A stretch of DNA of 64,000 nucleotides from an uncultured Bacteroidota bacterium (GTDB taxonomy: Bacteria; Bacteroidota; Bacteroidia; Bacteroidales; DTGW01). The DNA is taken from NCBI GenBank assembly GCA_963701015.1, contig OY969556.1, forward strand, positions 4,025,509-4,089,508. The letters are read 5' to 3'. Under the pieces are notes generated by a model. The model worked only from the letters and a program-made list of their open reading frames with translations, was not told the origin of the DNA and made no database searches. Each line of letters begins with the position of its first letter. Within the stretch, counting starts at the first letter, position 1. Made by a program: the position numbers and the translations under genes. This document shows, in pieces, positions 9,696 through 30,637 of the stretch.

Positions 9696-9706
9696 GTGAA
9701 TCTTTT

Positions 9707-9737: not shown

Positions 9738-9759
9738 AATAGAAATTTAGACAAGCATA

Positions 9760-12779: not shown

Positions 12780-13080
12780 AATAATTCATTTGTAAAAATT
12801 CCAAAATATAAAAAAATTATTTGCTTATTCATTTCTAGGGTTTTTGACGATATTTAATATTTTACTGTTGATATAATTAAACAATAGGTGGTTAAAAACG
12901 TTTAGTAATGTAATAGATTTAATCTTTAGAGCAATCATTTAAAACAAAAATAGCTTTATTTGGGTAAATTTGTTGCAAAGTGGATTAAATTGTTTTTAAG
13001 GAGTTTTCTCACTTTTATAAAAAGCAATTATAATTAAGACTACGGAAAATTGAATCATGACTAAATGAATAAAATATTTT

Positions 13081-13959: not shown

Positions 13960-13964
13960 AAAAT

Positions 13965-14951: not shown

Positions 14952-14952
14952 T

Positions 14953-15777
14953 TCATAAAAAAAACTTAAATTTTTTTAAAAATTTATACACAAATAAATT
15001 TTCAATCCGTAATATCCGTCCTTTGTAAAATTCTAATTTTTTATACAGAGTGATTGGATCTCCAAGCATTTCATATATAAAGTCGGCATGTTTTTTACTT
15101 GCATAACTTTGTGCTTTAATAGTATATTCATTTGGAATATTAACGAACATTGAACTTTCCTTTATCCGGTAAAAAAAACCAACATAGTCCAATCTATATA
15201 CTACATTGGAATTTTTTTCATTTTTCAATATATTTATCCAAAACTCCCAATCTTCATGCCCGTCGCGCATTTCACCATCATATCCTCCAACTCTCTCCCA
15301 TTCTGATTTTCTAAAGAAGGCTGTACAAAAAATCAAATTAGTATATGCTAATGTTTTAAAATCAAATGGTGGCAGATTCCACACACCTGATTTACCTCCA
15401 AAGTATTCAGCTTTACAATAAACCAATTTTGTCTGCTTATTTTCTACAAAATGACGAACGGCAAGTAATAGATAATCTTTGCCAATTTTATCATCTGCAT
15501 CCAAAGGAAGTATCAACTCACCTTTTGCATTTTTAATCCCTTCATTTCTTGCACTTGGTAATCCACCATTTGTTTTAATTACATATTTAATACGTTTATC
15601 TTTTAAAATATATTGTCCAGCAACTTCTTCAGTTTCATCTGGCGAACCATCATTAACAATAATACATTCCCAGTTTTCATAGCTTTGTGCCAACACTGAA
15701 TCAATTGCAACGGGTAAATATTGTGCTTGCTTATAACAGGGTATAATAACCGAGACTAAATGTTCAATCATTGTCAA
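14953..15777 (-). CDS. GT2-family glycosyltransferase
   Basis: SVIIPCYKQAQYL...IIVNDGSPDET and LDADD motifs. Confidence 0.85.
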   Translation of the reverse strand: MTMIEHLVSVIIPCYKQAQYLPVAIDSVLAQSYENWECIIVNDGSPDETEEVAGQYILKDKRIKYVIKTNGGLPSARNEGIKNAKGELILPLDADDKIGKDYLLLAVRHFVENKQTKLVYCKAEYFGGKSGVWNLPPFDFKTLAYTNLIFCTAFFRKSEWERVGGYDGEMRDGHEDWEFWINILKNEKNSNVVYRLDYVGFFYRIKESSMFVNIPNEYTIKAQSYASKKHADFIYEMLGDPITLYKKLEFYKGRILRIENLFVYKFLKKFKFFL

Positions 15778-15779
15778 TA

Positions 15780-16550
15780 TTAATTATGAAATATTTTCTT
15801 AAAAAACTTTTTTGAATAATACCAAAATGGGTTTGTCATTAATTTTATCTTCAACTCTTCCATTTCTTCATAATCTTTCAAATAGGTACCGAACTGTTTC
15901 TGCAAAAAAAGTTTCTTTTCATTTTTTATTAGTTCATCATTTGATTGGTATGAGCTTATCCCAGTGTGGTTAAAAACAGTAACTTCGGTATTTACATATT
16001 TATAACTGGCATTTAATATACATACGGTATAAATAAAAAATTCCCAGTCTGATGTAATTTTATTTTGCTCGTTATACGGGTTTCTGTTCAACAATTCTCT
16101 TCTAATTAAGGTAGCCGGATGGGGTAATGTATCTTTTAATAAATAACCAAAAGTAATTAAGGGGGGATAATATTTTATCCATTTTCTCGTACCATCGTCA
16201 ACTAATAAATTTCCGTAAATCAAATCTTTATCATTCCCTCTATTCAGAAGTTTATATAAAGATTCATTGTCAACGAAATAATCGCCACTATTTAAAAAAA
16301 TGCAATATTCCCCAATTGCTTTTGCAATGCCTTTGTTCATGGCATTATAAATTCCCTTGTCGGGTTCGCTTACCCAGTAAGTTATTTTATCAAAATATTC
16401 TTTAATAATATCTATACTTCCATCGGTACTGGCTCCATCAATTATAATATATTCGTAATCGGTAAAAGTTTGAGTAACTACGCTTTCAATAGTTTTGTGA
16501 AGACCAGTGGCATTATTAAGGTTAATAGTTATAATGGAGAGTTTGGGCAT
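15780..16550 (-). CDS. GT2-family glycosyltransferase
   Basis: LSIITINLNNATGL...IIIDGASTDGS motif. Confidence 0.85.
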   Translation of the reverse strand: MPKLSIITINLNNATGLHKTIESVVTQTFTDYEYIIIDGASTDGSIDIIKEYFDKITYWVSEPDKGIYNAMNKGIAKAIGEYCIFLNSGDYFVDNESLYKLLNRGNDKDLIYGNLLVDDGTRKWIKYYPPLITFGYLLKDTLPHPATLIRRELLNRNPYNEQNKITSDWEFFIYTVCILNASYKYVNTEVTVFNHTGISSYQSNDELIKNEKKLFLQKQFGTYLKDYEEMEELKIKLMTNPFWYYSKKFFKKIFHN

Positions 16551-16737
16551 TAAATTACTTTTTCAATTATTATTGTACTATTTAAGGTATAATTAAATAA
16601 ATTCCGCATTTAATATGCAATTTTATAAATATTTTAATAATGGCAAATTGTGATAAAGATTATTAGAGCAAAAATAATTGTAATTTTGAATATATTAGCT
16701 CTGTTACATTTTTTTGAAGATATTTTTAAATTAATTT

Positions 16738-17823
16738 ATGGGAATAATTAGAATATTATTAGCAATTGCTGTAATATTGACTCATTCAGGACCAATTTAT
16801 GGATTTAATTATATTGACGGCTTAATGGCTGTACAATCCTTTTTTATAATTTCCGGGTTTTATATGTCTTTAATTTTGAATGAAAAATATAATGGTGTAA
16901 AATCATATAAACTTTTTATTTCAAATAGATTGTTAAGATTGTTTCCAACTTATTTTTTAATAATAATTATTACTTTAATTGTGGCAACTATATTTAACAA
17001 TTTGGGAATACAACAAATTATAATTTCAGGGTTTTCTAATTTAAATTTCTTTTCGAAGTTTTATTTGATTTTTATAAACACTTTTATTGTTGGCCAGGAT
17101 ACTACATTATTTCTTGGATTTAACCTAAATGGATCGTTACATTTTATAAAAGATTTTCATAATTCAAATCCACAGGTTTGGAAATTTTTAATTTGTCCTC
17201 AGGCTTGGTCATTGAGTTTAGAGTTAATGTTTTATGCAATTGCACCATTTTTAGTTAAAAAGGACCTACGTTTTATTTTAGTTATAATGATTTTATCATT
17301 CATATTACGGCTATTTATTTATAAAAATGGATTGTATTATGATCCTTGGACTTATCGGTTTTTCCCAATTGAGTTGTTTTTCTTTCTATTAGGGAATATT
17401 TCATACAGGATTTATAAGTATATAAAGGAAATAAAATTCCCAAAGGAATTTGGAATGGATATGCTCATATTTATTTTGCTTTTACTATTTCTTTTCAATT
17501 TTATATCTGTAAAATATTACATTAAACAATATGCTTTTTATTTATTTTTCACTTTAGCAATTCCATTTATTTTTCATTATTCTAAAAACTATAAATTTGA
17601 TAGATTTATAGGCGAATTATCATATCCAGTGTATTTATCTCATAGTTTCATAATTACTTTTTGCATCCCAATTCTTTTTCATTTCTTTGGGTATAATTCT
17701 TCTTTAAAAAGTATAATTGCAGTTGTAGGGTCAATTATTTTTTCCTATTTAATTATTTTACTTCTAGTAAAGAGAATAGATGTATATAGAGAAAAAAGAG
17801 TTCAAAAATTTCAACTTAAGTAA
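16738..17823 (+). CDS. acyltransferase family 3 membrane protein
   Basis: 361-aa polytopic ORF. It is the only plus-strand gene inside the glycan locus. Confidence 0.7.
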   Translation: MGIIRILLAIAVILTHSGPIYGFNYIDGLMAVQSFFIISGFYMSLILNEKYNGVKSYKLFISNRLLRLFPTYFLIIIITLIVATIFNNLGIQQIIISGFSNLNFFSKFYLIFINTFIVGQDTTLFLGFNLNGSLHFIKDFHNSNPQVWKFLICPQAWSLSLELMFYAIAPFLVKKDLRFILVIMILSFILRLFIYKNGLYYDPWTYRFFPIELFFFLLGNISYRIYKYIKEIKFPKEFGMDMLIFILLLLFLFNFISVKYYIKQYAFYLFFTLAIPFIFHYSKNYKFDRFIGELSYPVYLSHSFIITFCIPILFHFFGYNSSLKSIIAVVGSIIFSYLIILLLVKRIDVYREKRVQKFQLK

Positions 17824-17863
17824 ACAAAATGGTTATATAAGTTTTGCCAAAATTAAATAATTA

Positions 17864-18760
17864 TTATTTCAATCGTTCAAGAACTTGCTCAACATTTTTT
17901 GTAGCTATCAAATTTACATAAGGATAATGTAACCGTTTAGTATCTTCGGTTAATGTATTATTTTTTGAATTATATACGTACCATTTATAACCAAAAGAAA
18001 CAAAATTATCATAAAGTTCATAACAATTTGTACCTGCTGCAAATAAATTACTTTCAGTAAATTCAACCATAAAAACAGGCGCATCCTGCTTACTTAAAAG
18101 TTCTTTAGCCCCTTTTAAAACCTCCATTTCCCAACCTTCAACATCCATTTTAATAAGTGCAATATCTTTTGAATAGATATTATTTTCAGCAAGGTAACTA
18201 TCAAGTGTTGTTACATTAATTTCAATTTTTTTATCAAAACTAATTTCAGAATTTTGAGCAAATGTATTCCAGGCATCGTGGCCATCAGTTGAAACATTTA
18301 AAAATAATTTTCCTTTATTTGAAGATAAGCCAATGTTATAGGCGGTTATTATATTTTGGAATTCATTTAATTCAATATTCTCTTTTAATCGTGAAAATGT
18401 TATGGGTGTAGGTTCAAAGGCATATATTCTACCCTTAGGGGAAATAATTTGGGCTGCATGTAAAGAAAAAAGTCCAATGTTTGCGCCAATATCAATAAAA
18501 GTATCTGCAGGCTTGAGAAATTTTCTCAAAAATATTATTTCATCTTGTTCAAAACCTGTATAAATGAGATTTGATAAAATGCTGTCTTTATAAAAGTTAA
18601 TTTGTAATTTATCATTGAGTTTACCTACAAAACTTGTGTTATTTCCAAATAAGTTATTCCAATTATCTTCTTCAATTTTCTTTTTTTTAATATTTTGTTT
18701 TTTAATATAATTATTCGCTCGGTTAGCAATTGCATATGCAATTCTTAAATCTAAATTCAT
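17864..18760 (-). CDS. FkbM-family methyltransferase
   Basis: FIDIGANIGLFSL...IYAFEPTPITF motif. It lies directly downstream of wzt. Confidence 0.8.
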   Translation of the reverse strand: MNLDLRIAYAIANRANNYIKKQNIKKKKIEEDNWNNLFGNNTSFVGKLNDKLQINFYKDSILSNLIYTGFEQDEIIFLRKFLKPADTFIDIGANIGLFSLHAAQIISPKGRIYAFEPTPITFSRLKENIELNEFQNIITAYNIGLSSNKGKLFLNVSTDGHDAWNTFAQNSEISFDKKIEINVTTLDSYLAENNIYSKDIALIKMDVEGWEMEVLKGAKELLSKQDAPVFMVEFTESNLFAAGTNCYELYDNFVSFGYKWYVYNSKNNTLTEDTKRLHYPYVNLIATKNVEQVLERLK

Positions 18761-18774
18761 TTATTTTAAATTTT

Positions 18775-20112
18775 TTAAATAGTTTCTGAATTAATCCAAT
18801 CAATTTTTGGCATTATTACACCAGGCCTGTTGTCGGCATATTGTTTGTTAAGTCCATCAATGTTAATAATAGAAAAGGGATATATAACTTTTTCAAAGCT
18901 TATCCATTTTACATTATGTATTCCAATGGCAATATTAATAATATAGGAACCAGGTTTTAAAAAATTTGAAGGAATTATTGCAGTTGATTTATAATTTCCA
19001 ATTTCAAAAGTCTCTGTTCGTATAATATCATCATGAAAAGTTCTGAAAAGTGTAAGCCCACTTTTAGAATCAATTAAATCAAAACCTATTCTTAGCCCAC
19101 TTATTTTTTTCTTTACAAAATATTCATATTCAATAATTATTTCATCTTTTGTATAAAACTCATTAGCATTTGATCCTTTCTGATATATATTTAACTTTTT
19201 AAGTTTAAAATATTCATCATCTGGTAAATTTATTTCTGCCAAAGAATCTCTGCTTTCTTTATTATTATTGGCAGATGATAAATAATATTCAATACCTTCA
19301 TTAACATTACCATTATAAACTGTTGTTCCGTTTTGAAGTACATATAAATTATTGCATAAATTCGCAATAGCAGTCATATTATGGCTCACAAATATAACAG
19401 TTCGGCCTTGTCCCTGGCTTACTTCCTGCATTTTGCCAATGGCTTTTTTCTGGAACTCGGCATCGCCCACGGCCAATACTTCATCAACCACCAATATTTC
19501 CGGCTCCAAATGGGCTGCCACTGCAAAGCCCAGGCGCACGGTCATACCGCTACTGTAACGTTTTACGGGAGTGTCAATGTATTTTGCTACGCCGGCAAAA
19601 TCAACAATTTCGTCCAGCTTCTTGTCAATTTCCCACTTGCGCATGCCCATTATGGTTCCATTCACGTAAATGTTTTCGCGGCCGGTCATTTCGGGGTGAA
19701 AGCCCGTGCCAACTTCCAGTAGGCTGGCAATACGGCCTTTTACTTTTATACTGCCCGTGGTGGGAGAGGTTACCTTGGAGAGTATTTTTAGCAAGGTGCT
19801 TTTACCGGCACCGTTTTTGCCTATAATACCCAGCACTTCGCCCTGCTTAACTTCAAGGTTAATATCCTTTAAAGCCCAAACTAATTCGGCCTCCCCCCTG
19901 CCCCCTCCATGAGAGGGGGAGTTAGCCTTCCCCCCTTTGGGGGGATTGAGGGGGGCTAATATATTTGTCTGCCCTACTTTGGTATAAGGGTCGGGTTGCC
20001 CAAGCAGGTTCATGCGCCACCAGCGGTTAAGGTCGTGGCTAAGCGTGCCGGTGCCTATTTGCCCCAGGCGGTAAAGTTTCGAGAGGTTTTCAATTTTAAT
20101 TACGGTGGACAT
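18775..20112 (-). CDS. wzt: O-antigen/glycan ABC exporter ATP-binding protein Wzt, with a C-terminal glycan-binding-type domain
   Basis: Walker A GKNGAGKSTLLK, signature YSSGMTVRL and Walker B ILVVDE, plus an extra C-terminal domain of about 190 aa. It carries an in-frame GC-rich palindromic insertion at 19888-19956. Confidence 0.85.
   Translation of the reverse strand: MSTVIKIENLSKLYRLGQIGTGTLSHDLNRWWRMNLLGQPDPYTKVGQTNILAPLNPPKGGKANSPSHGGGRGEAELVWALKDINLEVKQGEVLGIIGKNGAGKSTLLKILSKVTSPTTGSIKVKGRIASLLEVGTGFHPEMTGRENIYVNGTIMGMRKWEIDKKLDEIVDFAGVAKYIDTPVKRYSSGMTVRLGFAVAAHLEPEILVVDEVLAVGDAEFQKKAIGKMQEVSQGQGRTVIFVSHNMTAIANLCNNLYVLQNGTTVYNGNVNEGIEYYLSSANNNKESRDSLAEINLPDDEYFKLKKLNIYQKGSNANEFYTKDEIIIEYEYFVKKKISGLRIGFDLIDSKSGLTLFRTFHDDIIRTETFEIGNYKSTAIIPSNFLKPGSYIINIAIGIHNVKWISFEKVIYPFSIINIDGLNKQYADNRPGVIMPKIDWINSETI
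19888..19956. repeat. REP-like double-hairpin unit inserted in frame within wzt
   Basis: CCCCCTC-catga-GAGGGGG and CCCCCC-ttt-GGGGGG followed by ATTGAGGGGGG. On the coding strand it is translated as ILAPLNPPKGGKANSPSHGGGRGEAE. Confidence 0.8.
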
Positions 20113-20775
20113 TGTGTAAATTACAAATTACAAAGGACAATTTGCAAAATTAGCGAATTTATACCAAAACGGAAAATGAAAAAGGGAAAAGGCCTCTCCC
20201 CAACGCTACTCCCTTCGGTCGTGAGAACGCTGCGCTTAGTTCTCCCAAGGAGAGGGAGAAAGATAAAAAATAATTTCTTAAAGTCCCTTTCTTTAGGAAA
20301 GGGTTGGGGATAGGCTACTTTAAAGAGCGGTGGCCAGATCATCCGCGTAAGCCAGCGTTGGCTTTGAGCGAGGGGTTTCGGATGATCTTGAATTTTACTC
20401 CCTTCGGTCATGAGAACGCTTCGCTAAGTTTTGCTTCTTTTTGTGTCAAGACAAAAAGAAGAGGAATAAAAGAAATTGGCCTCTCCCCAGCCCTCCCCTA
20501 AGGAGAGGGAGAAAGATAAAAAATTGTGAATTTACTTTTCTTTGCCTGCCATACATAGAAAAGGTAACAAAAGAAAAATCACTACGGATACCATCCCCAA
20601 GCCAATCTATTCGCACATGCCACCGCCACTTGTGCCGATTGGCTTTCGGATCGCACTATCCGTGGACGTCAACGCGCAAAGCAATTTAATGAATTATCTT
20701 CTTATCATGCGAAGCATGAAAGAGTGTGAGCCAGATCATCCGCGCGAGCCAGTGTTGGCTTTGAGCGAGGGGTAT
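20113..20775. repeat. GC-hairpin mosaic region upstream of wzt
   Basis: Contains a vestigial heptamer tract (20166-20192), the GATCATCCG...CGGATGATC long hairpin (twice), the 32-bp mini-insert (20208-20239, 20397-20428), hairpin+TTGGGG units and the 89-bp repeat (20579-20667). Confidence 0.85.
20145..20164 (-). promoter_or_regulatory. conserved promoter-like box (TAATTTTG on the coding strand), 33 nt upstream of the wzt ATG
   Basis: The plus strand reads CAAAATTAGCGAATTTATAC, so the coding strand carries TAATTTTG, which matches the Bacteroidota -7 consensus TAnnTTTG. The box recurs upstream of 5 other starts. Confidence 0.55.
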
Positions 20776-20841
20776 AGTTTCGAGAGGTTTTACCTTCGGT
20801 GAGAACGCTTCGCTTAGTTCAATTTTAATTACGGTTGACAT
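20776..20841 (-). pseudogene. duplicated 5' end of wzt (38 bp of CDS) interrupted by a 28-bp mini-insertion
   Basis: AGTTTCGAGAGGTTTT[ACCTTCGGTGAGAACGCTTCGCTTAGTT]CAATTTTAATTACGGTTGACAT compared with the uninterrupted 20075-20112. Confidence 0.9.
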
Positions 20842-20887
20842 TGTGTTAATTACAAATGACTAATTACTAATTACAAATTACAATTTA

Positions 20888-20907
20888 CAAAATTAGCGAA
20901 ATTATAA
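20888..20907 (-). promoter_or_regulatory. conserved promoter-like box copy
   Basis: CAAAATTAGCGAAATTATAA, 47 nt upstream of the relic wzt start. Confidence 0.45.
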
Positions 20908-20908
20908 T

Positions 20909-21141
20909 AAAACGGAAAATGGTTGGCGGAAAACGGTAAACGGAGTAAGGTAAAAGGGTAAACGGAGAAGGGAGAACGGAAAACGGTTGGCGGAAAACGG
21001 AAGAAGGGGAAAGGAAAACGGAAAACGGGGAATGGAGGAAGGAGGACGGAAAACGGTAAACGGAAAACGGTAAACGGAGAAGGGAAGACGGTAAACGGAG
21101 AAGGGAGAATGGAGGAAGGAAAACGAGGAATGGAGGAAGGA
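20909..21141. repeat. purine-rich heptamer minisatellite, array 1 (about 33 units)
   Basis: GGAAAAC/GGTAAAC/GGAGAAG/GGAGAAC units stay in a continuous 7-bp phase, with one 8-bp slip. Confidence 0.9.
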
Positions 21142-21183
21142 TAAATGAAACTGTCTTATTTGTTATTGAAACCCACCCCTTAG

Positions 21184-21199
21184 CCCCTCCCGGGAGGGG
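21184..21199 (-). terminator. candidate hairpin terminator or insulator (perfect 16-bp palindrome)
   Basis: CCCCTCCCGGGAGGGG lies 18 nt downstream of the stop of the 21218-22006 ORF. There is no clear U-tract. Confidence 0.3.
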
Positions 21200-21217
21200 A
21201 AATTGAATTATGTTTTT

Positions 21218-22565
21218 TCATTTTACCACCTCCCAATGCCCCCCTTTATCGGGGCCAATGCGTTTAATTGCTTTTCTGTCTTTTAATATTTTTAAATATC
21301 TTTGAATAGACCGTTCTGTAAGGGTCATTCTTTTTGCCAAATCGGAAGCTGATAATTGATTGTTTATTTTCAATAATTTAATTATTTCTATCTCATTTTC
21401 TACGACATTTTCTACGACATTTTCGGTGTCCTTATCGAATGTTTCAATATTTGCAGTCGTCTTTTGTTTGGTATAACTTAATTCAACAAAAAAACCGTTT
21501 GGAATTTCGTTGTAATCGAAATTCATTGTCGGGTATTGCCTAAGTTCATCACGTATCCGTTTAAACCCACTGCCATATTTTTCAATATCGCCGGTTAAAT
21601 AAAATGCTTCGGCCAGTAATTTATTTCGGGCATAGGCCTGATAATTATTGGTTTTTAAATCGGCAATAGTTAGATTGCCAAACAAAGTGCCGGGATTAAA
21701 AAAAGTAATGCTTTTGTCGAATATCTTAATTTGAATATCAACAGGGCTTAAATAATCGCGATGGATTAGCGAGTTTAATACCAATTCCCTGAGCGCTGGC
21801 AAGGGGTATTCAAATATTTCGGTTCGTTGTGTTGTTCTACCTGAAATTTCGAAAGCTACTTTTATTTGCGAAATTAAATATTTCATGGTTTCATCAACAG
21901 CCTCAAACAAGGGTAACCTCAACATTTTATCGTCAATAATAAGCGATGGGGTTTTAAAACGGCCTAAATGCACATTATACGAAATATCGGTTTTTGCAAA
22001 AAGCAAGTATGCTGCATTTGTAATTTTATTATTTGAAATGAACCTGAGTTTTTCGAGATTTTCAATCGTAGTCCCTTCTAAATTTAAAACGCCCGATAGT
22101 ATTTACTTTCTGTATAAATTTATCTACCTTTTTGAGGTCAATATCCACTAAATTTATATTATTTGCAGGATATGAATCCCATGAAACCTGCAGCGATTGC
22201 ATGCTTAAATCGGCTATCTCAAGTGCAGTCAACTGGTGATTCGAGTTTTTTACCCTTTTATAATAACGGCCTTTAAACGAAATTGGCTTTACCGGAAATT
22301 CATGAATAATTAAGGCAACTGTTTTTTTGCCTTTATAATTTATTAATTCAATATCAGGAATAATGGAGGGTTGTGTTTTTACTTTTATTTCGTTTATCCA
22401 TTTTTGAAAAGTTTCTTTGCCATACGTGAAGTTTTTATTAATACTTCCGTCATCGTTAATGCCAACAAATACTTTACCCCCTTTACAATTGGCATAGGCA
22501 ACCAAAGTTTCAATAACAGTATCGTTAAAGCCTGATTTATATTCTATGTGCTCGTTTTCAAGCAT
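21218..22565 (-). pseudogene. Schlafen/AlbA_2 + HATPase_c_4-like + wHTH putative regulator, split by a frameshift
   Basis: ORFs 22062-22565 (AlbA_2 N-terminus, HIEYKSGF...) and 21218-22006 join to read ...GRFKLEGTTIENLEKLRFISNNKITNAAYLLFAKTD if one T is removed from the run at about 22080-22090. Confidence 0.75.
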
Positions 22566-22598
22566 TAGGTAGTATTTTTTTTAACACTTTACCAATTA

Positions 22599-22618
22599 CA
22601 AAATTAGTGAATTTATAA
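22599..22618 (-). promoter_or_regulatory. conserved promoter-like box copy
   Basis: CAAAATTAGTGAATTTATAA, 34 nt upstream of the AlbA_2 ORF start. Confidence 0.5.
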
Positions 22619-22902
22619 TAAAACGGAAGACGGTAAACGGAGAAGGGAAAACGGAGAAGGGAGAACGAAAAACGGAGAATGGTAAACGGAGAAGGGAAAA
22701 CGGAAAACGAGGAATGGTAAACGGAGAAGGGAGAACGGAAAACGGAAAACGAAAAACGGAGAATGGTAAACGGAGAAGGGAGAACGGAAAACGGAAAACG
22801 GAAAACGGGGAATGGAAAACGGAGAAGGGAGAACGGAAAAAGGGAAACGGAGAAGGGAAATCGAAAAACGGAAAAGGGAAAACGGAGAAAGGAAAACGAG
22901 GA
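22619..22902. repeat. purine-rich heptamer minisatellite, array 2 (about 40 units)
   Basis: Same heptamer family, with a 49-bp higher-order repeat (GAGAATGGTAAACGGAGAAGGGAGAACGGAAAACGGAAAACGAAAAACG). Confidence 0.9.
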
Positions 22903-23099
22903 TAATTTTTTAAAAATTAGGGCAAAATTTCAAAATTATGCAAATTCGTATTCCACACTATTTACAGGTATTTGTCATCATTTACTTTAATTAAAAATAT
23001 CTATAGCTTTTTCAATTAAATAGGCTTTTATCTCTTCTTCATTAACAGCCGGTACAATATATTCAACAGGCTCGGAGTAATCAATGTCATTAAAATAGG

Positions 23100-23603
23100 C
23101 TAACTGGCACTGAATTGTTTCTCGGAAAATAAATCATTGTATATAGTTAAGGCCTTTTCTGAAACTTGTTTAATGGAATAAAATTTTCTTAAAATAAAAT
23201 ATAAATCAACATAATCTTTCCATTTCGATCGTCTGCTCATGGCAAATGCCTTCATAGCAGCTAATGTTAATAAATCAGGCATTTTTAAATACCCCTCAAA
23301 TTCACACGACGCAATTATTTGATAAGGGTACTGAAAAAAAGTAAATTTTACATCTTGAATAGTTACATTTAGCTGTTCATAAACCCTTCTGTTAACAATA
23401 TACTTTTTATGTAACGAATCAATCTTTTTAAGCAACCTTTTAGGTTGGATTTCATTTTGTTTAAACAAATCAAAATCAATAGATCTTCTATGGCCAATGT
23501 GTAATGCAATAGCAGTTCCTCCAACAAGATAAAATTCTCTTTTAAACAATTTCACCAATGGCAATAATTCTAATTGATCAGTATTTAAAATTTCTTTATG
23601 CAT
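23100..23603 (-). CDS. AbiEii/AbiGii-type nucleotidyltransferase toxin-like protein (3' end frameshifted)
   Basis: LVGGTAIALHIGHRRSIDFDLF motif. A further 37 codons (QLAYFNDIDYSEPVEYIVPAVNEEEIKAYLIEKAIDIFN*) continue in another frame down to 22987. Confidence 0.65.
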   Translation of the reverse strand: MHKEILNTDQLELLPLVKLFKREFYLVGGTAIALHIGHRRSIDFDLFKQNEIQPKRLLKKIDSLHKKYIVNRRVYEQLNVTIQDVKFTFFQYPYQIIASCEFEGYLKMPDLLTLAAMKAFAMSRRSKWKDYVDLYFILRKFYSIKQVSEKALTIYNDLFSEKQFSAS

Positions 23604-23871
23604 ATCGTGAGAAAAGAATAAAAAAGTAATTATAAATTTCAGGAAAGAAATTCATTTTCTTCCTACCTTGCATATTATTAAACACTTTTGCCACGTTTTC
23701 AATACCCATTATTGAAAAAAGTTTATGCACTGCATCTAATGAGCCATAATTTAAAATGTGTTCTACCAATAATTCGTGGCTTATATTCTCCTTTTCTTTT
23801 TCGGGTGTGTACCAAAAAAGGGAGCTGTTTTGGCGTATAAATGCTTTTAGTTCTTCAGTATTTTCAGGCAT
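23596..23871 (-). CDS. small partner protein of the AbiEii-like gene (putative antitoxin)
   Basis: 91-aa ORF overlapping the downstream NTase gene by 8 nt. Confidence 0.45.
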   Translation of the reverse strand: MPENTEELKAFIRQNSSLFWYTPEKEKENISHELLVEHILNYGSLDAVHKLFSIMGIENVAKVFNNMQGRKKMNFFPEIYNYFFILFSRYA

Positions 23872-23898
23872 CTAGATAGTATTAGAAATATAAAATTA

Positions 23899-24194
23899 CT
23901 AAAATATACTTGTAAACATTTTATATAAGGTAATTTTGCCTGCCCCGTTACGGCCAGTTATGCCCACACGGTCGTTTGTTTTATTTCAAAATTTAAATCC
24001 TTTAAAGCCCAAAAATCTTCCATTTCATCGTTGGCAATAAGCTGTCCGCCTTTAAATATTTGGCGGGTTTTAGATGCTATTTGCCGGACTTTATTGGCCA
24101 GAACATCGCGCAAAGCGGTATAACGCTCGTGCTTTTCGTGGCCTATAATATAACTTTTGCCCAGGTTCTCGGCTTTAATTACTGTATGGCTCAT
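23899..24194 (-). pseudogene. relic of a second, divergent wzt/tagH-type ABC ATPase gene (N-terminal about 90 codons, frameshifted and truncated)
   Basis: Encodes MSHTVIKAENLGKSYIIGH...FWALKDLNFEIKQ, then after a 1-nt shift DRVGITGRNGAGKITL (Walker A). Homology ends where the AbiE-like pair begins. Confidence 0.85.
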
Positions 24195-24240
24195 GAAGAC
24201 AATTACTAATTACTTATCACAAATGTCAAATGACAATTTG

Positions 24241-24260
24241 CAAAATTAGTGAATTTATAA
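24241..24260 (-). promoter_or_regulatory. conserved promoter-like box copy
   Basis: CAAAATTAGTGAATTTATAA, 47 nt upstream of the relic wzt' ATG. Confidence 0.5.
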
Positions 24261-24280
24261 CAAAACAGAAAATTGTAGTC

Positions 24281-24550
24281 GGAAGACGGAGAAGGGAAAA
24301 AGGTGGACGGAAAACGGAAAACGGAGAATGGAAAACGGAGGATGGTGGACGGAAAACGGAGAAGGGAAAACGGAAAACGGAGAATGGTAAACGGAGAAGG
24401 GAGAATGGTAAACGGAGAAGGGAGAATGGTAAACGGAGAAGGGAGAATGGTAAACGGAGAAGGGAGAACGGAAAACGAAAGACGGAGAATGGTAAACGGA
24501 GAAGGGAGAACGGAAAACGGAGAAAGGAAAACGGAAAACGGGGAAGAGAA
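24281..24550. repeat. purine-rich heptamer minisatellite, array 3 (about 38 units)
   Basis: Includes 3 perfect copies and 1 near-perfect copy of the 21-bp unit GGTAAACGGAGAAGGGAGAAT at 24386-24469. Confidence 0.9.
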
Positions 24551-24835
24551 ATAATATTTGTGAGATTGTTGTAATTTGAAACCCACCCTTTAGCCCCTCC
24601 CGGGAGGGGAAATATTTTTTCGTATCACACAAAGTGTGAAAGAGCGATGGCTTGATCATCCGAGCGAGCCTTAAGAACCACCCATTAGCCCCTCCTTTAA
24701 AAGGAGGGGAAACTGATTTGTTAACTTTACTCGACTTCGTCTAATGAACTAAGCGAAGCGTTCTCACGAGTTTTACGAGTAGCTTAGCCTTTGGCGTTCT
24801 CACGACCAAAGGGAATAAATCGCTTCGCTTAGACA
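24551..24835. repeat. conserved 285-bp GC-hairpin block (copy a)
   Basis: Collinear with 28126-28410, and partly with 26221-26345 and 21142-21215. It contains CCCCTCCCGGGAGGGG, TCACAC-aaa-GTGTGA, GATCATCCG... and CCCCTCCTTTAAAAGGAGGGG. Confidence 0.9.
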
Positions 24836-25400
24836 GCCCGCAGCTGAAATTGTATTTTTTTTATCACACTTTGTGTGAAAGAGCGTGAACCAGATCATCC
24901 GCGCGAGCCAGCGTGGGCATTGAGCGAGGGGTTTCGGATGATCTTGAATTTTACTCCCTTCGGTCATGAGAACGCTTCGCTAAGTTTTGCTTCTTTTTGG
25001 TTCATGCCAAAAAGAAGGGGAATGAATGCAAAAGATTTGCTGTTGTATTTATTATATGCAATGTTGGCTAGTAGCGATTTATTTTTCTTTGCTTGCCATG
25101 CAAAGAAAAGGTAACAAAACTTAGCGATATGGTTTACTCACTGTGGTCATGAGAACGCGTTGCTAAGTTCATGAACGAAGGGAGCAAAGGGGTTGGGGAT
25201 AGGCCTTTTGGCTTTCGGACCGCACCATCTGTGGACTCCCTACGCGCAAAGCTCAAAACTCTTTACAGTTTACAACCATTTACCGTTAACCGTTTTCCTT
25301 TTATCCGTCAAATGGTTCAAGCCAAAAATAAGAGGAATGCTGGAAAAAGCTTTATTTGTAAATTAAAATCAGCTTTAACCGCCTATCGAGGAAATGAAGT
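24836..25400. repeat. GC-hairpin mosaic region
   Basis: Same modules as 20113-20775, in similar order. Confidence 0.85.
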
Positions 25401-25426
25401 TGAATTTAACCATTTTCCCATTATTG

Positions 25427-25663
25427 TTAATATAACAATGCTTCAACTAAAATATCTTCATCAAGAATTTCCCAATGAATCCCTTCGCCACCACCAATAA
25501 ACCTATAATTTTCCCTATCTTTTTTGGAAGCATCGCGCAAACTGGGAAACCAATCAATTGGTACTGAAAGTTCTCTTCCATCGTCAAGTAAAATATGCAT
25601 CATTAAGTCTGAAAACCAAACTTTTGTTGCATTAGCCGATTTAATAATTGTTGTGATATTCAT
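25427..25663 (-). CDS. DUF2442-family small protein
   Basis: 78-aa ORF (ILLDDGRELSVPIDWFPSLRDAS...GIHWEILDEDI) that overlaps the upstream DUF4160 ORF. Confidence 0.65.
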   Translation of the reverse strand: MNITTIIKSANATKVWFSDLMMHILLDDGRELSVPIDWFPSLRDASKKDRENYRFIGGGEGIHWEILDEDILVEALLY

Positions 25664-25877
25664 TCCATTTAATATTAAGAAAGTCTAAATTTTGAATTAT
25701 TAAATTTCTTATTTCATGAATCTCTGAAGAATTAAAATGTTTTGATTTAATAATTTCAACAGGATTTAATAAAAATTTTGCGGTACCTTCTGCTTTTTCA
25801 ATATGAATATGTGCAGGAGAATGATCATTAACATAAAAGAAAAACCTGTATCCATTAATATTTAATATTGTTGGCAT
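25641..25877 (-). CDS. DUF4160-family small protein
   Basis: 78-aa ORF with a HSPAHIHIEKAEGTAKF motif. Confidence 0.65.
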   Translation of the reverse strand: MPTILNINGYRFFFYVNDHSPAHIHIEKAEGTAKFLLNPVEIIKSKHFNSSEIHEIRNLIIQNLDFLNIKWNEYHNNY

Positions 25878-25905
25878 AACAATTTAGATATTGTTTGACA
25901 AAACT

Positions 25906-25925
25906 CAAAATTAGCGAATAAAATA
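25906..25925 (-). promoter_or_regulatory. conserved promoter-like box copy (proximal)
   Basis: CAAAATTAGCGAATAAAATA, 29 nt upstream of the DUF4160 ATG. Confidence 0.5.
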
Positions 25926-25968
25926 ACTTATTGCCAATGACTAATTACTGATTATAAATGATAATTTT

Positions 25969-25988
25969 CAAAATTAGCGAATTTATAA
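25969..25988 (-). promoter_or_regulatory. conserved promoter-like box copy (distal, tandem)
   Basis: CAAAATTAGCGAATTTATAA, directly abutting array 4. Confidence 0.45.
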
Positions 25989-25989
25989 T

Positions 25990-26222
25990 AAAACGGAAAA
26001 AGGGAAACGCAGTAAGGAAAAAGGGAAAACGGAGAAGGGAGAAGGGAGAAAGGAAAACGGGAAAGGAAAACGGAAAACGGAAGACGGAAGACGGAAAACG
26101 GGGAATGGAGAATGGTAAACGGAGAACGGAAAACGGAAGACGGAAGACGGAGAAGGGAAAACGGAAGACGGAAGACGGAGAACGGAAAAAGGAAAAAGGA
26201 AAATGGAAAACGGGGAAGAGAA
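25990..26222. repeat. purine-rich heptamer minisatellite, array 4 (about 33 units)
   Basis: Same heptamer family (GGAAGAC, GGAAAAC, GGAGAAG ...). Confidence 0.9.
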
Positions 26223-26900
26223 ATAATATTTGTGAGATTGTTGTAATTTGAAACCCGCCCCAACCCCTCCCGGGAGGGGAAATATTTTTTCGTATCACAC
26301 GAAGTGTGAAAGAGCAGCGGCCGGATCATCCGCGCGAGCCAGCGTTGGCTTTTAGCGAGGGGTTTCGGATGATCTTGAATTTTTGCTTCTTTTTGGTTCA
26401 GGCCAAAAAGTAGAGGAATAAATGAAATTGGCCTCTCCCCAGCCCTCTCCTAAAGAGAGGGAGTAGGAAAGTATTAAAAAATTTGGTGCAAAATAAATTA
26501 TTTCATAAAACTTCTTTCTTTTGGAACTTAGCGAAACGGTCTCATGACCGAAGTGAGTAAAGGGGTTTGGGATAGGCACTTTGGCTTTCAGATCGCACTA
26601 TCCGTGGACGACAGCGCGCAATACTCAAGACTTTTAACTGTATAAAACCATTTACCATTCACCGTTTTCCTTTTATCTGTCAAATGGTTCAAGACAAAAA
26701 GAAGAGGAATAAAATTTAGGAGAATTGTGCTCTCAATCCCCCAGCCCCCTTTTCAAAGGGGGAAAGCCCTGCTTTACAGTATAAAACCATTTACCTTTCT
26801 CCGTTTTCCTTTTATCCGTCAAATGGTTCAGGCCAAAAAGTAGAGGAATGCAAAGCTTTTGTAATACGCGTTTAAACTATCTTCATGAACGAAGTGTATA
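26223..26900. repeat. conserved hairpin block (copy b) plus GC-hairpin mosaic
   Basis: 26223-26345 matches 24553-24670. It is followed by an empty site for the 32-bp mini-insert (T-run 26380-26384), hairpin+TTGGGG units and two AACCATTT...AAATGGTT units. Confidence 0.85.
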
Positions 26901-26967
26901 AACTCGTACAAGTTGGACATTATGTATAAATCACTAACATCTATCAACAAGCAACTTACAACCTCTT

Positions 26968-27837
26968 TTATACGGTATCAATAAAACTTCTTTCAGTACG
27001 GTTAAAGATAATTATACCTAAAAACAAAACCACCAGGGTAAAAACTGTAGTGTATATTATCCCGGTTGAACTATGGGTGCCTGAACCCAGGAATCCGTAT
27101 TTAAATGTTTCTAAAATTGGTGTCATAGGATTAGCCATAATGAAAGGGCGTAATTTGCCATGAATCATAGAAACAGGGTAAATTACAGGGGTTGCATACA
27201 TAAGTAATTGAACTCCAAATGTTATAAGAAATGTCAGGTCGCGGTATTTAGTTGTTAGCGAAGTGAAAATAATCCCGAATCCCAAGCCAAGTCCACCCAT
27301 CAATAAAATAAGATACGGTGTTAACAACATATAAATATTGGGATGAATTGACAAATTGTGTTTTAATAAATAATAAATAAATACAGCTAAAAACAAACCA
27401 AATTGGATGCCAAATTTTATTAATCCCGATAAAACTTTTGACATTGGTGAAACAAGCCTTGGGAAATAGACCTTACCAAAAACATTGGCATTATCGGTAA
27501 ATGTCTTAGATGTTATACTAAAGCATTCTGAAAAATAATTCCAAACAATAATACCTGCAAGATAGAATAGCATCATGGGAATACCATCGGTAGGCATTTT
27601 GGCAATATTACCGAAAACCACAATATATATAGCCGTGGTTAAAATAGGTTGAAGTATAAACCAAATTGGACCAAGAACGGTTTGTTTATAAACCGTAACA
27701 ATGTCACGTTTAACAAACATGGTAAGTAAGTCACGATACTGCCAAATTTCTTTCAGGTTAATATCGAGAAGATGTTTCTTAGGCTGTATTATTTGAGTCC
27801 ATTGCTCTTCCGTAGTATTAAATTTTTCTTCGGGCAT
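26968..27837 (-). CDS. wzm: ABC-2 type glycan/O-antigen exporter permease Wzm
   Basis: 289-aa ORF with 6 predicted TM segments and a typical N-terminus (...EIWQYRDLLTMFVKRDIVTVYKQTVLGPIWFILQP). Confidence 0.85.
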   Translation of the reverse strand: MPEEKFNTTEEQWTQIIQPKKHLLDINLKEIWQYRDLLTMFVKRDIVTVYKQTVLGPIWFILQPILTTAIYIVVFGNIAKMPTDGIPMMLFYLAGIIVWNYFSECFSITSKTFTDNANVFGKVYFPRLVSPMSKVLSGLIKFGIQFGLFLAVFIYYLLKHNLSIHPNIYMLLTPYLILLMGGLGLGFGIIFTSLTTKYRDLTFLITFGVQLLMYATPVIYPVSMIHGKLRPFIMANPMTPILETFKYGFLGSGTHSSTGIIYTTVFTLVVLFLGIIIFNRTERSFIDTV

Positions 27838-27886
27838 TCTATTTTAAATTACCTATTACAAATGATTGTTAACAAATGATAAATTG

Positions 27887-27906
27887 CAAAATTAAGGAAA
27901 TTAAAC
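27887..27906 (-). promoter_or_regulatory. conserved promoter-like box copy
   Basis: CAAAATTAAGGAAATTAAAC, 50 nt upstream of the wzm ATG. Confidence 0.5.
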
Positions 27907-27918
27907 CAAATCTGACAA

Positions 27919-28125
27919 TGGAAAAGGGAGTTCGGAAAACGGAAGACGGAAAAGAGAGAAGGGAAGTCAATTACAAATTACGAATGACAAATTGGAAAAC
28001 GGAAAACGGAAGACGGAAGACGGAGAAGGGAAAACGGATAAGGGAAATCAATGACAAATTACAAATTACGGATGACAAATTGGAAAACGGAAGACGGAGA
28101 AGGGAAAACGGAGAACGGGAAAAAG
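27919..28125. repeat. heptamer minisatellite, array 5 (about 29 units, interleaved with A/T heptamers)
   Basis: GGAAAAC/GGAAGAC/GGAGAAG runs are interrupted twice by ATTACAA-ATTACGA-ATGACAA type heptamers, in the same 7-bp phase. Confidence 0.9.
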
Positions 28126-28410
28126 AAATAAGATTTGTGAGAGGGGTGTAATTTGAAACCCACCTCAACCGCTTCCGGGAGGGGAAATAATTTTTCGTAT
28201 CACACGAAGTGTGAAAGAGCGCGAGCCTGATCATCCGCGCGAGCCTTAAGAACCACCCCTTAGCCCCTCCTTTTAAAGGAGGGGAAACTGATTTGTTAAC
28301 TTTACTCGACTTCGTCTCATGAACTAAGTGAAGCGTTCTCACGAGTTTTACGAGTAACTTAGCAACGCGTTCTCACGACCAAAGGGAGTAAAACGCTTCG
28401 CTAAGTTCTA
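28126..28410. repeat. conserved 285-bp GC-hairpin block (copy c)
   Basis: Collinear with 24551-24835. Confidence 0.9.
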
Positions 28411-28639
28411 AGGGAGAAAAGCCTTGCCTTACAATATAAAACCATTTACCGTTCACCGTTTTTCTTTTATCCGTCAAATGGTTCAAGCCAAAAAGAAGAG
28501 GAATGTTAGCAAAAGCTTTAATACTTTATTGGTATGGAATTTATTTTTTATTTTGTAACACACGCTAGTAGTGTCACCACAGCTACTATCAGTTGATGCT
28601 TTGTACGTAATGCAAATTAATTTCCACTCCCGGGAAGGG

Positions 28640-29770
28640 TTAGAGTAGTGGTTGTTCTAAATCTAATACTTCTTTTCGAATCCATATTTGGAAAAGGGGA
28701 TCAGAGAAAACATAACCTTTATTAGTCTTCAAAATCAAACCTTTATTCAATAGAGCATGTATGGTACGTGAAATATTAATCAATTTTACATCAATAGTCG
28801 AATAGGGTTTTAAGCTTTCAGCCAAAGCCAATAAAACTGTCCGTTGCTCACGACTGCCAGATATGTCTTCCCATAATTTTTCGAGATAACCTTTTTCTGA
28901 ATCCAAAAGTAAGGACAGAATTAAATCATAAGCTTTTTGGGTATCGTTGGGTAATTCATTAACCAATAGTAAATGCTGTAGCACAAGTGATGAATAGTAT
29001 GGGTGCCCTCCGGTAAAATCGAGTAATTTATCTATTAGCAGATTATTTACCTTAATTCCCGATAGGTTGAGTTTTGAAGTATAATATTTTTTATAGGTTT
29101 TAGAGTCAATACAGCCTATGTGAACAATACGGGCAAATCGATAAAAAGGCGATTTTGCAGTGGTAAACAATTGGTTCATCACCGATTCGTAGCTTCCTGA
29201 AAAAATATAACTAACATTTTTTTGGGTTTGCATTTTAGCCCGCAGCATTTTTGCAACGTCCGTTCCGCCAAGTTTCTCAATGTCCCCAAATTCATCAAGC
29301 CCTATAATTAATTGTTTTTGGTATTTTAATGAAAACTTATCGGCAAAGTCAATGCTGTTTTCAAGTAATTCCCAAGGATCACTTTCGGGTTTGGCATATT
29401 TCAGTACAAAATCAAATTCTTCAATAGTACTGCGTAATTCAACATTTTTAATCAGTTCGCCTAAGTTCTTTTTTACCAATTGAATAATATTTTCGAGTTT
29501 CTTATTTTCTAAAATCTTGGAAGTTAATTGTTCTGATAGTCTCGTAATGTCGCGGGTAGTAAAAATATCAAGGTATGCAGTAAATTCCCCTTCATTCTTC
29601 AATAAGTCCAATATTTTAAATACCAGTGAGGTTTTACCAAAACGTCTGGGCGCTATTAAAACAACACTTTGTCCATTTTTCAATAAATTGCAAAGTTCAG
29701 CGATTTCTTTTGTACGCCCAATAAAATCAATACCCGTTACCGGTTTCCCTACTTGTAATGAATGTGTCAT
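28640..29770 (-). CDS. AAA+ ATPase (archaeal-ATPase/Orc1-like P-loop protein)
   Basis: 376-aa ORF with Walker A (IAPRRFGKTSL) and Walker B (IIGLDEF). Confidence 0.6.
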   Translation of the reverse strand: MTHSLQVGKPVTGIDFIGRTKEIAELCNLLKNGQSVVLIAPRRFGKTSLVFKILDLLKNEGEFTAYLDIFTTRDITRLSEQLTSKILENKKLENIIQLVKKNLGELIKNVELRSTIEEFDFVLKYAKPESDPWELLENSIDFADKFSLKYQKQLIIGLDEFGDIEKLGGTDVAKMLRAKMQTQKNVSYIFSGSYESVMNQLFTTAKSPFYRFARIVHIGCIDSKTYKKYYTSKLNLSGIKVNNLLIDKLLDFTGGHPYYSSLVLQHLLLVNELPNDTQKAYDLILSLLLDSEKGYLEKLWEDISGSREQRTVLLALAESLKPYSTIDVKLINISRTIHALLNKGLILKTNKGYVFSDPLFQIWIRKEVLDLEQPLL

Positions 29771-29942
29771 AGTTTCATTTATTATTCAACAAATATAATA
29801 CAAAAAGTGTATGGTACAAAAAGTGTATGGTACAAAAAGTGTCTTTATAAAATTTGTGGAATAGTAAAAGGTTTAATACAATAAAAAAATAGGGCAAAAA
29901 ATTCAATATTTCTGTAATATATAGAAAGGCAGGGAAAGTAAT

Positions 29943-30485
29943 TTATTTATTGATAAGTATTTCTGAATTCTCAACAAAATTCGATTCCTGGATTCGTCTT
30001 AAACTTGAAGGGTGTATTTCTACCAGCAAAGATTGATTAATTGCATCGATTTGCAATAATGCTCTTTTCTTTCCTTTGTAAGTTACTAATGTACCACAGA
30101 ATCCGGTTAAAGCACCGCGATAGACTTCTACCATCTCCCCGTATTCAAATAAATCATAGCTAACTTCAAATTTCTCTGTAGATTTTAAAAGCATTTTCAG
30201 GAATTCAATTTGATAGTCGGGTATTTTTGCCGGTTGAAATTCGAAGGATACAAAACCCGCAACACCGTCAATTGCTCTTACAATATGATATTTCTTATAG
30301 TTGGTGCGAACAAAAACATACGATCGGAATAAAGGCATTTCAACCATTTTTTTTCTGTCATGCCACTGGCGAAGGGTTTTTTGTAATGGCAAATAGGCTT
30401 CAATGCCATGCTCACATAACCGGGCATAAGCAACCTTCTCACTTCGCGACCGCACATAAATTGCATACCAATGAAGTTGCAACAT
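29943..30485 (-). CDS. UpxY-family (NusG/RfaH-like) transcription antiterminator
   Basis: WYAIYVRSRSEKVAYARL...PLFRSYVFVR plus a C-terminal KOW-like region. The ATG at 30485 is preferred over the longer ORF. Its position at the head of the glycan locus fits the family. Confidence 0.8.
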   Translation of the reverse strand: MLQLHWYAIYVRSRSEKVAYARLCEHGIEAYLPLQKTLRQWHDRKKMVEMPLFRSYVFVRTNYKKYHIVRAIDGVAGFVSFEFQPAKIPDYQIEFLKMLLKSTEKFEVSYDLFEYGEMVEVYRGALTGFCGTLVTYKGKKRALLQIDAINQSLLVEIHPSSLRRIQESNFVENSEILINK

Positions 30486-30637
30486 ATAACTAATTTTGGG
30501 GATGGTAAATATAAGTAATAATGTGCTGATTTGCCAATGAAACAATGCGCCAATGATTAAGTAGTAATTGAATTAGGATATAGAAAATTCGCTTACTGTT
30601 ATCATTTTAATTTACAATTAGTGCATTAGCAAATTGT

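Follow-up and report, generated by a model that had tools for sequence, protein, structure and literature searches.

Accessory cassettes and wzt relics between wzm and wzt in a Bacteroidota polysaccharide locus

The genes wzm and wzt encode the permease and the ATPase of an ABC transporter for surface glycans, and they usually lie side by side. In the stretch considered here (the window: 64,000 nucleotides of contig OY969556.1 from an uncultured Bacteroidota bacterium, GC content 32%), 6,855 bp of accessory genes, gene relics and repeats separate them, with every unit on the strand of the operon (minus). How did this DNA come to lie at the wzm-wzt junction, and what has let it stay there? An original prediction, made from the letters of the window, proposed repeated insertion or replacement at the junction. 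All the elements that it listed have been recovered and their families are backed by Pfam: the observation as a whole is confirmed, and the interpretation is partly supported. We favour, with a probability of about 55%, the explanation that recombination left this DNA as debris at the head of a polysaccharide locus under UpxY control, a head that is conserved while the locus is variable, and that the arrangement is not a designed one.

The wzm-wzt junction and its wzt relics

The identity of the two exporter genes is clear. Wzm matches the ABC-2 permease family at 1.1e-17 (64.7 bits against a cut-off of 26.9), and its homologues are labelled lipopolysaccharide (LPS) transport permease by JGI. 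The intact Wzt is a Wzt/TagH-type ATPase by its PF00005 match (3.5e-23); among the NCBIfam models, TagH and galactan Wzt/RfbE score best (E 1e-57 to 1e-53, both under their equivalog cut-offs), and Wzt_C (PF14524) falls just below its gathering score, at 29.2 bits against 30.4.

The closest relatives with which the junction can be compared are four lineages with 79-84% Wzm identity, designated L082/L083, L085/L086, L084 and L002. The last of these, a metagenome-assembled genome ("uncultured Bacteroidetes MFD02138.bin.2.39"), is the closest genome match, at 83% Wzm identity. In L082/L083 and in L085/L086 the junction is empty and the two genes are adjacent. L084 has a PDDEXK_3 gene in the junction; L002 has a C-terminal fragment of DegT (recognised by eye), a Schlafen gene with a premature stop and a PDDEXK_3-like relic (also by eye). 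With two of the four lineages empty and two differently filled, the predicted repeated insertion is borne out, and the junction can be regarded as a recurrent landing site of which the window is an extreme case. More distant loci, from Bacteroidota and one Planctomycete, have gaps filled with genes for 23S_rRNA_IVP four-helix-bundle proteins (L005, L079), DUF6922 (L017), RhuM (L021), a nucleotidyltransferase pair (L049) or PDDEXK_3 (L231), always on the operon strand. Adjacency of wzm and wzt, assumed at the outset, is the norm and not a rule: among 72 informative related loci the distance is at most 150 bp in 47, 151-1000 bp in 12 and more than 1 kb in five, and in the other eight no wzt lies within 3 kb or more of wzm.

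The intact wzt is itself a composite. Its nucleotide-binding domain has a GC content of 50% (55% at third codon positions), its C-terminal domain 25% (13%), with the step at about nt 720. DNA identity to the L002 gene, at 85%, is confined to the nucleotide-binding domain and ends at 19369, the domain boundary; the wzt genes of relatives have a like offset (44-50% against 34-37%). Over its N-terminal 130 residues the protein has 73-93% identity to its counterparts in relatives with a similar Wzm, which identifies the intact wzt as the lineage-typical partner of the present wzm. Wzt residues ~53-68, in the variable loop before Walker A, stem from an in-frame insertion (APLNPPKGGKANSPS, ~19910-19960) that originated in a palindromic repeat rich in GC. 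This insertion is found in L002 too, and is not found in L082, L084 or L085.

Two relics of wzt 5' ends lie in the interval. The longer, relic B, reads after its frameshift through Walker A (GITGRNGAGK). Its identity to the intact Wzt is 36%, and no locus with a wzm of the present (A) type has a Wzt more than 41% identical to it; to another Wzt subtype its identity is 67-84%, and it is 74-84% for N-terminal Wzt fragments that JGI labels LPS transport ATP-binding protein. This B subtype stands beside an A-type wzm in none of 64 loci, and in L231 the Wzm paired with it is only 35% identical to that of the window. Relic B is of a foreign subtype and was probably never the partner of the present wzm. 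The displacement of a resident wzt by an incoming one, as originally proposed, is not supported for this relic, given its foreign subtype and the lineage-typical intact gene.

Relic A is where that proposal survives. It consists of wzt codons 1-8, a frame-shifting piece of 27/28 nt derived from a miniature inverted-repeat transposable element (MITE) and ~18 nt of wzt, joined to a MITE interior. It is 91% identical to two stretches of L002: 8480-8545, the true wzt start there, and 15948-16013. The element had been described as a 66-bp duplicate of the intact wzt start. A relic of a wzt start it is, but the mosaic with a 28-nt repeat fragment, as in L002, rules out a plain copy of the resident gene, and the window's intact wzt is free of that piece. 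With its L002-type 5' end and frame-breaking piece, relic A seems to record the replacement of a damaged resident wzt 5' end by a clean one with its own leader. L002 also has a 640-bp direct repeat (97%; 7935-8574 and 15404-16042), which takes in the 3' end of a Schlafen gene, the PDDEXK_3-like relic and the DNA upstream of wzt, and which stops ~100 nt inside the gene; the second copy, 7.5 kb downstream, is a wzt 5' relic. Within 16 kb, L002 has two genes of the Schlafen type plus a third 3' fragment.

Relic B has counterparts in other metagenomes. In the window, in L230 and in L232/L233, a B-type wzt is cut within ~10 nt of one place, after the codons for GAGKSTLLK, and is directly followed by a toxin-antitoxin pair, different each time, whose antitoxin starts 0-30 nt past the relic stop or the junction. 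L230 (165-1821) has the relic, a gene for a protein of 101 residues with an AbiEii gene whose product is 27% identical to that of the window, and then a full wzt, the first 281 bp of which are an 88% direct repeat of the relic; the two copies flank the AbiEii pair. L232 (572-1480) and L233 (514-815) have one junction in common, followed by DUF2281/PIN. A separate contig has a DUF4160 gene with an open reading frame (ORF) of 87 codons next to it, and a B-type wzt follows ~330 bp downstream. By these likenesses, the DNA from relic B through AbiEii looks like a block imported from a B-type locus, of which the DUF4160 pair was perhaps a part. The search for relic homologues returned only short proteins, many of which are frameshift or contig-end artefacts at the A-run of the GAGK codons and not relics; these are not counted as evidence, and P0126 is probably one of them.

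Anatomy of the interval

Cassette and relic DNA makes up ~44% of the interval and four heptamer arrays ~14%; the remainder is mostly MITE-like repeats, whose families recur in L002 and at ~6.4-6.8 kb of the window. Only one of the four cassette units is intact, the DUF4160/DUF2442 pair; the other three are pseudogenes or relics. Coordinates are collected in Table 1.

Table 1. Features of the window discussed in the text, from the locus head downwards along the operon
Feature	Position	Strand	Assignment
UpxY-family (NusG-like) antiterminator, heads the polysaccharide locus	29943-30545	-	NCBIfam antiterm_UpxY NF033644, Pfam NusG
ATPase_2/AAA_35 accessory gene between UpxY and wzm	28640-29770	-	Pfam
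Leader unit upstream of wzm: MITE-like repeats, GC hairpin, short heptamer arrays (27994-28128)	27838-28520	-
wzm, ABC-2 permease	26968-27837	-	Pfam ABC2_membrane PF01061
Spacer 1: MITE-like cluster, hairpin CCCCTCCCGGGAGGGG (26264-26279), array (25990-26213), core (25969-25986)	25878-26967	-
DUF4160 protein, DhiT-like toxin candidate, intact	25641-25877	-	Pfam DUF4160 5e-15, full profile
DUF2442 protein, DhiA-like antitoxin candidate, intact	25427-25663	-	Pfam DUF2442 3e-18
Spacer 2: MITE-like cluster, hairpin, array (24286-24546, 21-bp super-period), core (24241-24258)	24195-25426	-
Relic B of B-type wzt, codons 1 to ~97, one frameshift, ends just past Walker A	23900-24194	-
AbiEii partner (91 residues), distant DUF6922-like antitoxin candidate	23596-23871	-	Pfam DUF6922 E=0.078
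AbiEii-family nucleotidyltransferase pseudogene	22987-23603	-	Pfam AbiEii
Schlafen leader unit: array (22620-22898), core (22599-22616)	22566-22986	-
Schlafen/AlbA_2 - HATPase_c_4 - HTH regulator pseudogene	21218-22565	-	Pfam
Relic A leader unit: GC hairpin, array (20909-21133), core (20888-20905)	20842-21217	-
Relic A, A-type wzt start mosaic, 66 bp	20776-20841	-
MITE-like cluster and short leader (core 20145-20162) directly before intact wzt	20113-20775	-
Intact A-type wzt	18775-20112	-	Pfam ABC_tran, weak Wzt_C
AAA_14/DUF4143 ATPase, second accessory patch	7099-8277		PADLOC candidate system PDC-S01, E 2e-64
MITE cluster, repeat families shared with the interval, second accessory patch	~6396-6840
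NTP_transf_2 (MNT-like) gene, second accessory patch	5400-5723

The intact pair resembles a known type II toxin-antitoxin system. DUF4160/DUF2442 is the validated DhiTA pair of Dickeya dadantii, with the toxin gene first and the two genes overlapping (PMC8198452); the window pair has the same Pfam families in the same order, with an overlap of 23 nt. The match is very distant, at 18.2 bits against a cut-off of 100 for the NCBIfam DhiT model (NF048015), short of equivalog-level similarity, and the window pair is a toxin-antitoxin candidate.

The second pair consists of AbiEii and the protein of 91 residues encoded before it. PF08843 assigns AbiEii (23100-23603) to the toxin family at 5.5e-13 (49.8 bits against 22.5), and PADLOC AbiEii models match down to 1.4e-06. 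The DUF6922 match of the partner is below threshold, aligned over positions 4-51 of 52; the partner is 43% identical to its counterpart in L017. An AbiEi-type winged-helix antitoxin is not found upstream of AbiEii by Pfam, NCBIfam or PADLOC. The original listing needs a correction here: the AbiEii gene, too, is frameshifted, near codon 164, and a change of frame carries its last ~40 codons on to 22987. A separately assembled contig (L228) has the same frameshift, which is also evident from the alignment with the intact L017 homologue, to which the repaired protein is 60% identical over 200 residues.

The Schlafen-type regulator, likewise, is no single intact ORF. SLFN_AlbA_2 (5e-21) lies at 22062-22565 and HATPase_c_4/HTH at 21218-22006 in a different frame, by one frameshift near 22065-22100, also seen in contig L227; the repaired protein is 46% identical to the L002 copy over 448 residues. 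The defence-like character of the cassettes stops at the level of domains: a PADLOC search finds no complete defence system, only AbiEii alone and partial matches of the Schlafen protein to Argonaute-associated models.

The cassettes are preceded by a repeated leader unit. In full form it comprises a GC hairpin element, a 220-280-bp array of heptamers (CCGTTTT, CCCTTCT or CCGTTTA on the coding strand), the core TTATAAATTCRCTAATTTTG and an AT-rich leader with (TGTAATT)n. This composite stands before wzm, DUF4160, relic B and relic A; the copy at the Schlafen gene has no hairpin element, and the intact wzt has a leader stub with a short array remnant and no hairpin. The original prediction gave each unit a module, but the AbiEii pair, directly behind relic B, has no promoter module of its own. 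Chance does not account for the module: the promoter core ATAAATTCRCTAATTTTG is present five times where 0.17 would be expected, and every copy in the 64 kb lies in this region. All five heptamer arrays of the window lie between 20.9 and 28.1 kb. The leader units share composite blocks of 310-496 nt at 75-82% identity (27914-28405 matches 24352-24832 at 80% over 496 nt), which indicates that they were copied as blocks. Tandem 7-bp repeats stand directly before the wzt start in two further contigs, CAGAATA three times in L232 (~490-540) and a CAACTGA-like heptamer three times in L233 (~480-510); the window has TGTAATT-type repeats at 20848-20891, and the contigs with the similar repeats are unrelated to it.

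Promoters of Bacteroidota have the -7 consensus TAnnTTTG. The box TAATTTTG fits this consensus and lies 36-57 nt before the ATG of each unit except the AbiEii pair; in the wzm leader, the -7-like box is at 27887-27894. The spacing is that seen at other first genes of the window, whose TAnnTTTG-like boxes stand 27-65 nt before the start; operon-internal genes have no such boxes. It is plausible, from the placement of these boxes, that the units are self-promoted. A sigma-70 and terminator scan, a method unsuited to Bacteroidota, scored barely above shuffled sequence. An Rfam scan by E-value of 18-31 kb gave no match, so the repeats are not recognised as known RNAs, and a scan of the whole window found no tRNA and hence no evidence of a tRNA att site. 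ORFs through the arrays (GKRRRENGK... or SPFSV...) are low-complexity translations of repeats, not genes. In JGI metagenome contigs and IMG/VR, at least 140 single matches to ATAAATTCRCTAATTTTG were found, none of those listed with heptamer repeats upstream; these are chance matches to an AT-rich 18-mer and not copies of the module.

Such a concentration of repeats raises the question of whether the assembler simply joined unrelated segments between wzm and wzt. The five arrays of ~250 bp and many dispersed repeats would favour such a join. Logan contigs, assembled separately from run ERR11718638 (from which the window contig may also come), bear on this. Four of them are 100% identical to 9569-20233, 21395-22693, 22771-24403 and 26271-28023 and run into the flanking arrays; they cover wzm (L001), the intact wzt (L229) and relic B (L228), so the unique segments and the three frameshifts (Schlafen gene, AbiEii and relic B) are reproduced. 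Their breaks fall inside the arrays, and the order of segments across the arrays consequently comes from the long contig alone. That contig, which carries the window's Wzm, measures 4.47 Mb, and if long reads underlie it, repeats of ~250 bp would have been easily spanned. In relatives, moreover, the junction is independently seen to be filled, and wzt 5' relics occur. A chimeric assembly, named beforehand as what would overturn the observation, is suggested by nothing in the data, and an artefact is highly improbable.

Competing explanations

How, then, might the debris have accumulated? The locus head (UpxY, wzm and the unusually GC-rich nucleotide-binding half of wzt) is conserved between lineages, unlike the wzt C-terminal domain and the downstream glycosyltransferases, and it would act as the anchor when the variable part is exchanged. 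Such exchange would repeatedly bring recombination endpoints into the wzt 5' end or immediately in front of it. Some events would be imprecise or one-sided; they could be the integration of circularised fragments by a single crossover, illegitimate joins anchored by homology, or unequal crossing-over of leader units of ~0.4-0.5 kb. They would duplicate the wzt 5' end, giving the two relics, and would trap a B-type block (the 5' fragment of wzt-B with its abutting AbiEii pair, perhaps also DUF4160/DUF2442) and a Schlafen-type gene, with the leader unit (hairpin repeat, heptamer array, -7-like box and AT-rich leader) copied in front of each new unit. The insertions may persist because all are co-oriented with the operon, because read-through by UpxY-type antitermination and activity of the internal promoters would keep wzt and the downstream genes expressed, and because an addiction effect of the one intact toxin-antitoxin pair would penalise deletion. 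Recombination debris is favoured because junctions are empty or differently filled at 79-84% Wzm identity, because the GC step in wzt from 50% to 25% and the end of homology to L002 fall at the domain boundary, and because duplications of the wzt 5' end flank inserted DNA elsewhere (281 bp in L230, 640 bp in L002). It also draws on the decay of three of the four cassette units, the small operon-strand genes in the gaps of other loci, the foreign subtype of relic B, the DUF4160 gene near a B-type wzt, the block-wise copies of the leader, the common orientation of the units with their boxes, and the UpxY gene at the head.

Several observations weigh against this reading. The leader unit and its heptamer arrays are found in none of 86 related loci, L002 included, and at 75-82% identity the copying of the leader is not recent. 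In the window as in L002, a Schlafen gene is found upstream of the wzt 5' end, and part of the arrangement may for that reason be ancestral. The order and timing of events are beyond reconstruction with a comparison set that includes no genome of the same species. Lastly, three different toxin-antitoxin pairs abut wzt-B within ~10 nt of one codon, a regularity of endpoints that would not be expected from random recombination.

It is this regularity that makes site-specific integration the main rival, though an unlikely one. Toxin-antitoxin cassettes would enter just past the Walker A codons of a B-type wzt, each bringing a replacement wzt 5' end that restores the host gene and leaving the original as a relic, much as phages and islands do at tRNA genes or icd, with a recombinase supplied in trans. 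The cargo beyond the shared relic end does differ each time (DUF6922-like/AbiEii in the window, the 27%-identical AbiEii pair in L230, DUF2281/PIN in L232), and the antitoxin start keeps its short distance to the junction. The L230 repeat, too, spans the part from ATG to junction, and at only 88% identity it fits a copy borne by the element. However, neither an integrase nor any other recombinase is present in the interval, L230 or L232, it is not demonstrable that the junctions fall at one nucleotide, and the independent cases number only three, L232 and L233 sharing theirs. The regenerated wzt-B that this model expects is not in the window, and the other wzt duplications end elsewhere, relic A at about nt 45 and the L002 repeat at about nt 100. 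A broader form of the idea is doubtful: the wzt 5' end, from ATG to just past Walker A, may be a portable attachment or homology site for tiny toxin-antitoxin cassettes, at which wzt is regenerated, a 5' relic is left behind and different cargos, namely two distant AbiEii pairs and a DUF2281/PIN pair, share the junction in different Bacteroidota. The promoter-bearing heptamer repeat of the window might act similarly, building a cassette array without a recombinase inside a glycan-export operon.

Less probable again is an ancestral, functional arrangement in which the cassettes are long resident with locus-specific roles and the decay is recent. Regulation of the locus by the Schlafen-HTH protein would be one such role; another would be that the modules provide separately tunable or phase-variable promoters for wzm and wzt. 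The Schlafen-type gene between wzm and wzt in L002, directly before a like wzt 5' end, is what such a history would predict, as are the short 7-bp repeats before wzt in L232 and L233 and the age of the leader units. Yet the junction is empty in two of the four relatives at ~80% Wzm identity, the Schlafen proteins of the window and L002 are 42-49% identical (against 83% for Wzm) and both are disrupted, the relics and frameshifts point to decay, and the arrays are not present in L002.

The locus head and its place among known systems

The gene at the head of the locus matches antiterm_UpxY with 142 bits against a cut-off of 100, which places it in the UpxY family, and a NusG gene lies upstream of wzm in relatives too. 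Between UpxY and wzm stands the ATPase_2/AAA_35 gene, with a weak PADLOC match to PDC-S27; in L082 the NusG gene is ~500 bp from wzm with no ATPase_2 gene between. A perfect 16-bp tandem repeat (TACAAAAAGTGTATGG, 2.8 copies) lies at 29799-29842, between UpxY and the ATPase_2 gene. Downstream of wzt follow an FkbM methyltransferase, acyltransferases, three GT2 genes, one GT11 gene and further transferases. Within this glycosyltransferase block sits a second accessory patch (5400-8277). The landing zone for accessory genes is, with the UpxY-wzm gap and this patch at 5.4-8.3 kb, wider than the wzm-wzt junction. Elsewhere in the window, the gene for an FG-GAP/Por_Secre_tail protein of 1207 residues contains a 156-bp tandem repeat (1.9 copies, 73% matches, 38236-38529), which probably reflects the protein's own repeat structure.

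ABC-transporter-dependent O-antigen and glycan loci of the E. coli O8/O9a and Klebsiella type have a modular Wzt. The window shares with them Wzm and a Wzt with a conserved nucleotide-binding domain and a variable C-terminal domain, together with glycosyltransferases and an FkbM-type methyltransferase downstream; the GC step, and the end of homology where the two domains meet, both fit an exchange of the specificity part of Wzt. In contrast with those loci, wzm and wzt are here 6.9 kb apart, with only selfish or accessory genes, relics and repeats in the gap and no biosynthetic genes. That the glycan-export operon is essential, as the original prediction had it, is an assumption.

The capsular loci of Bacteroides, controlled by UpxY/UpxZ, offer a second parallel: an UpxY antiterminator heads a long, nearly uni-directional polysaccharide operon. 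Processive antitermination would, by this analogy, explain why co-oriented insertions are tolerated. The window differs in exporting by Wzm/Wzt and not by Wzx/Wzy, and no UpxZ or invertible promoter has been identified in it. To our knowledge, the Bacteroides capsular model does not include repeated internal promoter modules that carry heptamer arrays.

Two kinds of integrated element are also comparable. Chromosomal integrons, such as the Vibrio superintegrons, consist of small co-oriented units in tandem with a recurring repeat and toxin-antitoxin pairs that are possibly stabilising. Integron cassettes, however, are mostly promoterless with a 3' attC, whereas the window's repeat lies 5' of each cassette with a promoter-like box, and several of its units are relics of the flanking host gene. 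No recombinase family appears among the genes listed for 17.8-30.5 kb (Pfam, NCBIfam), and no IntI/attI/attC system is recognised there, attC structure not having been specifically modelled. Islands at tRNA genes, and e14 or phage 21 at icd, leave a displaced partial copy of the target on one side and the intact gene on the other, a pattern clearest here in L230. In the present case the duplicated part is the 5' end of a protein gene, and the cargo amounts to a single toxin-antitoxin pair, only ~1.1 kb long and without a linked recombinase. The known kind is an accessory-gene and recombination hot spot in a glycan locus, and the window is a variant of it.

For annotation pipelines the interval carries a warning, as truncated ABC ATPases and split regulators would be reported in it. 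Two of its features are worth a survey: the recurring junction of wzt relic and toxin-antitoxin pair, and the heptamer-array promoter unit. If the junction is targeted, it would represent an undescribed way for tiny selfish cassettes to spread without a recombinase of their own; if it is only debris, it would still be of use as a dated record of how a glycan locus has recombined. Few parts of bacterial genomes vary as much as surface-glycan loci, and phages commonly use surface glycans as receptors. The window suggests that in Bacteroidota the conserved head of such a locus (UpxY, wzm and the wzt 5' end) does more than provide crossovers for the exchange of serotypes: it may also trap toxin-antitoxin and defence-like genes, with relics of the host gene as the footprints of trapping.

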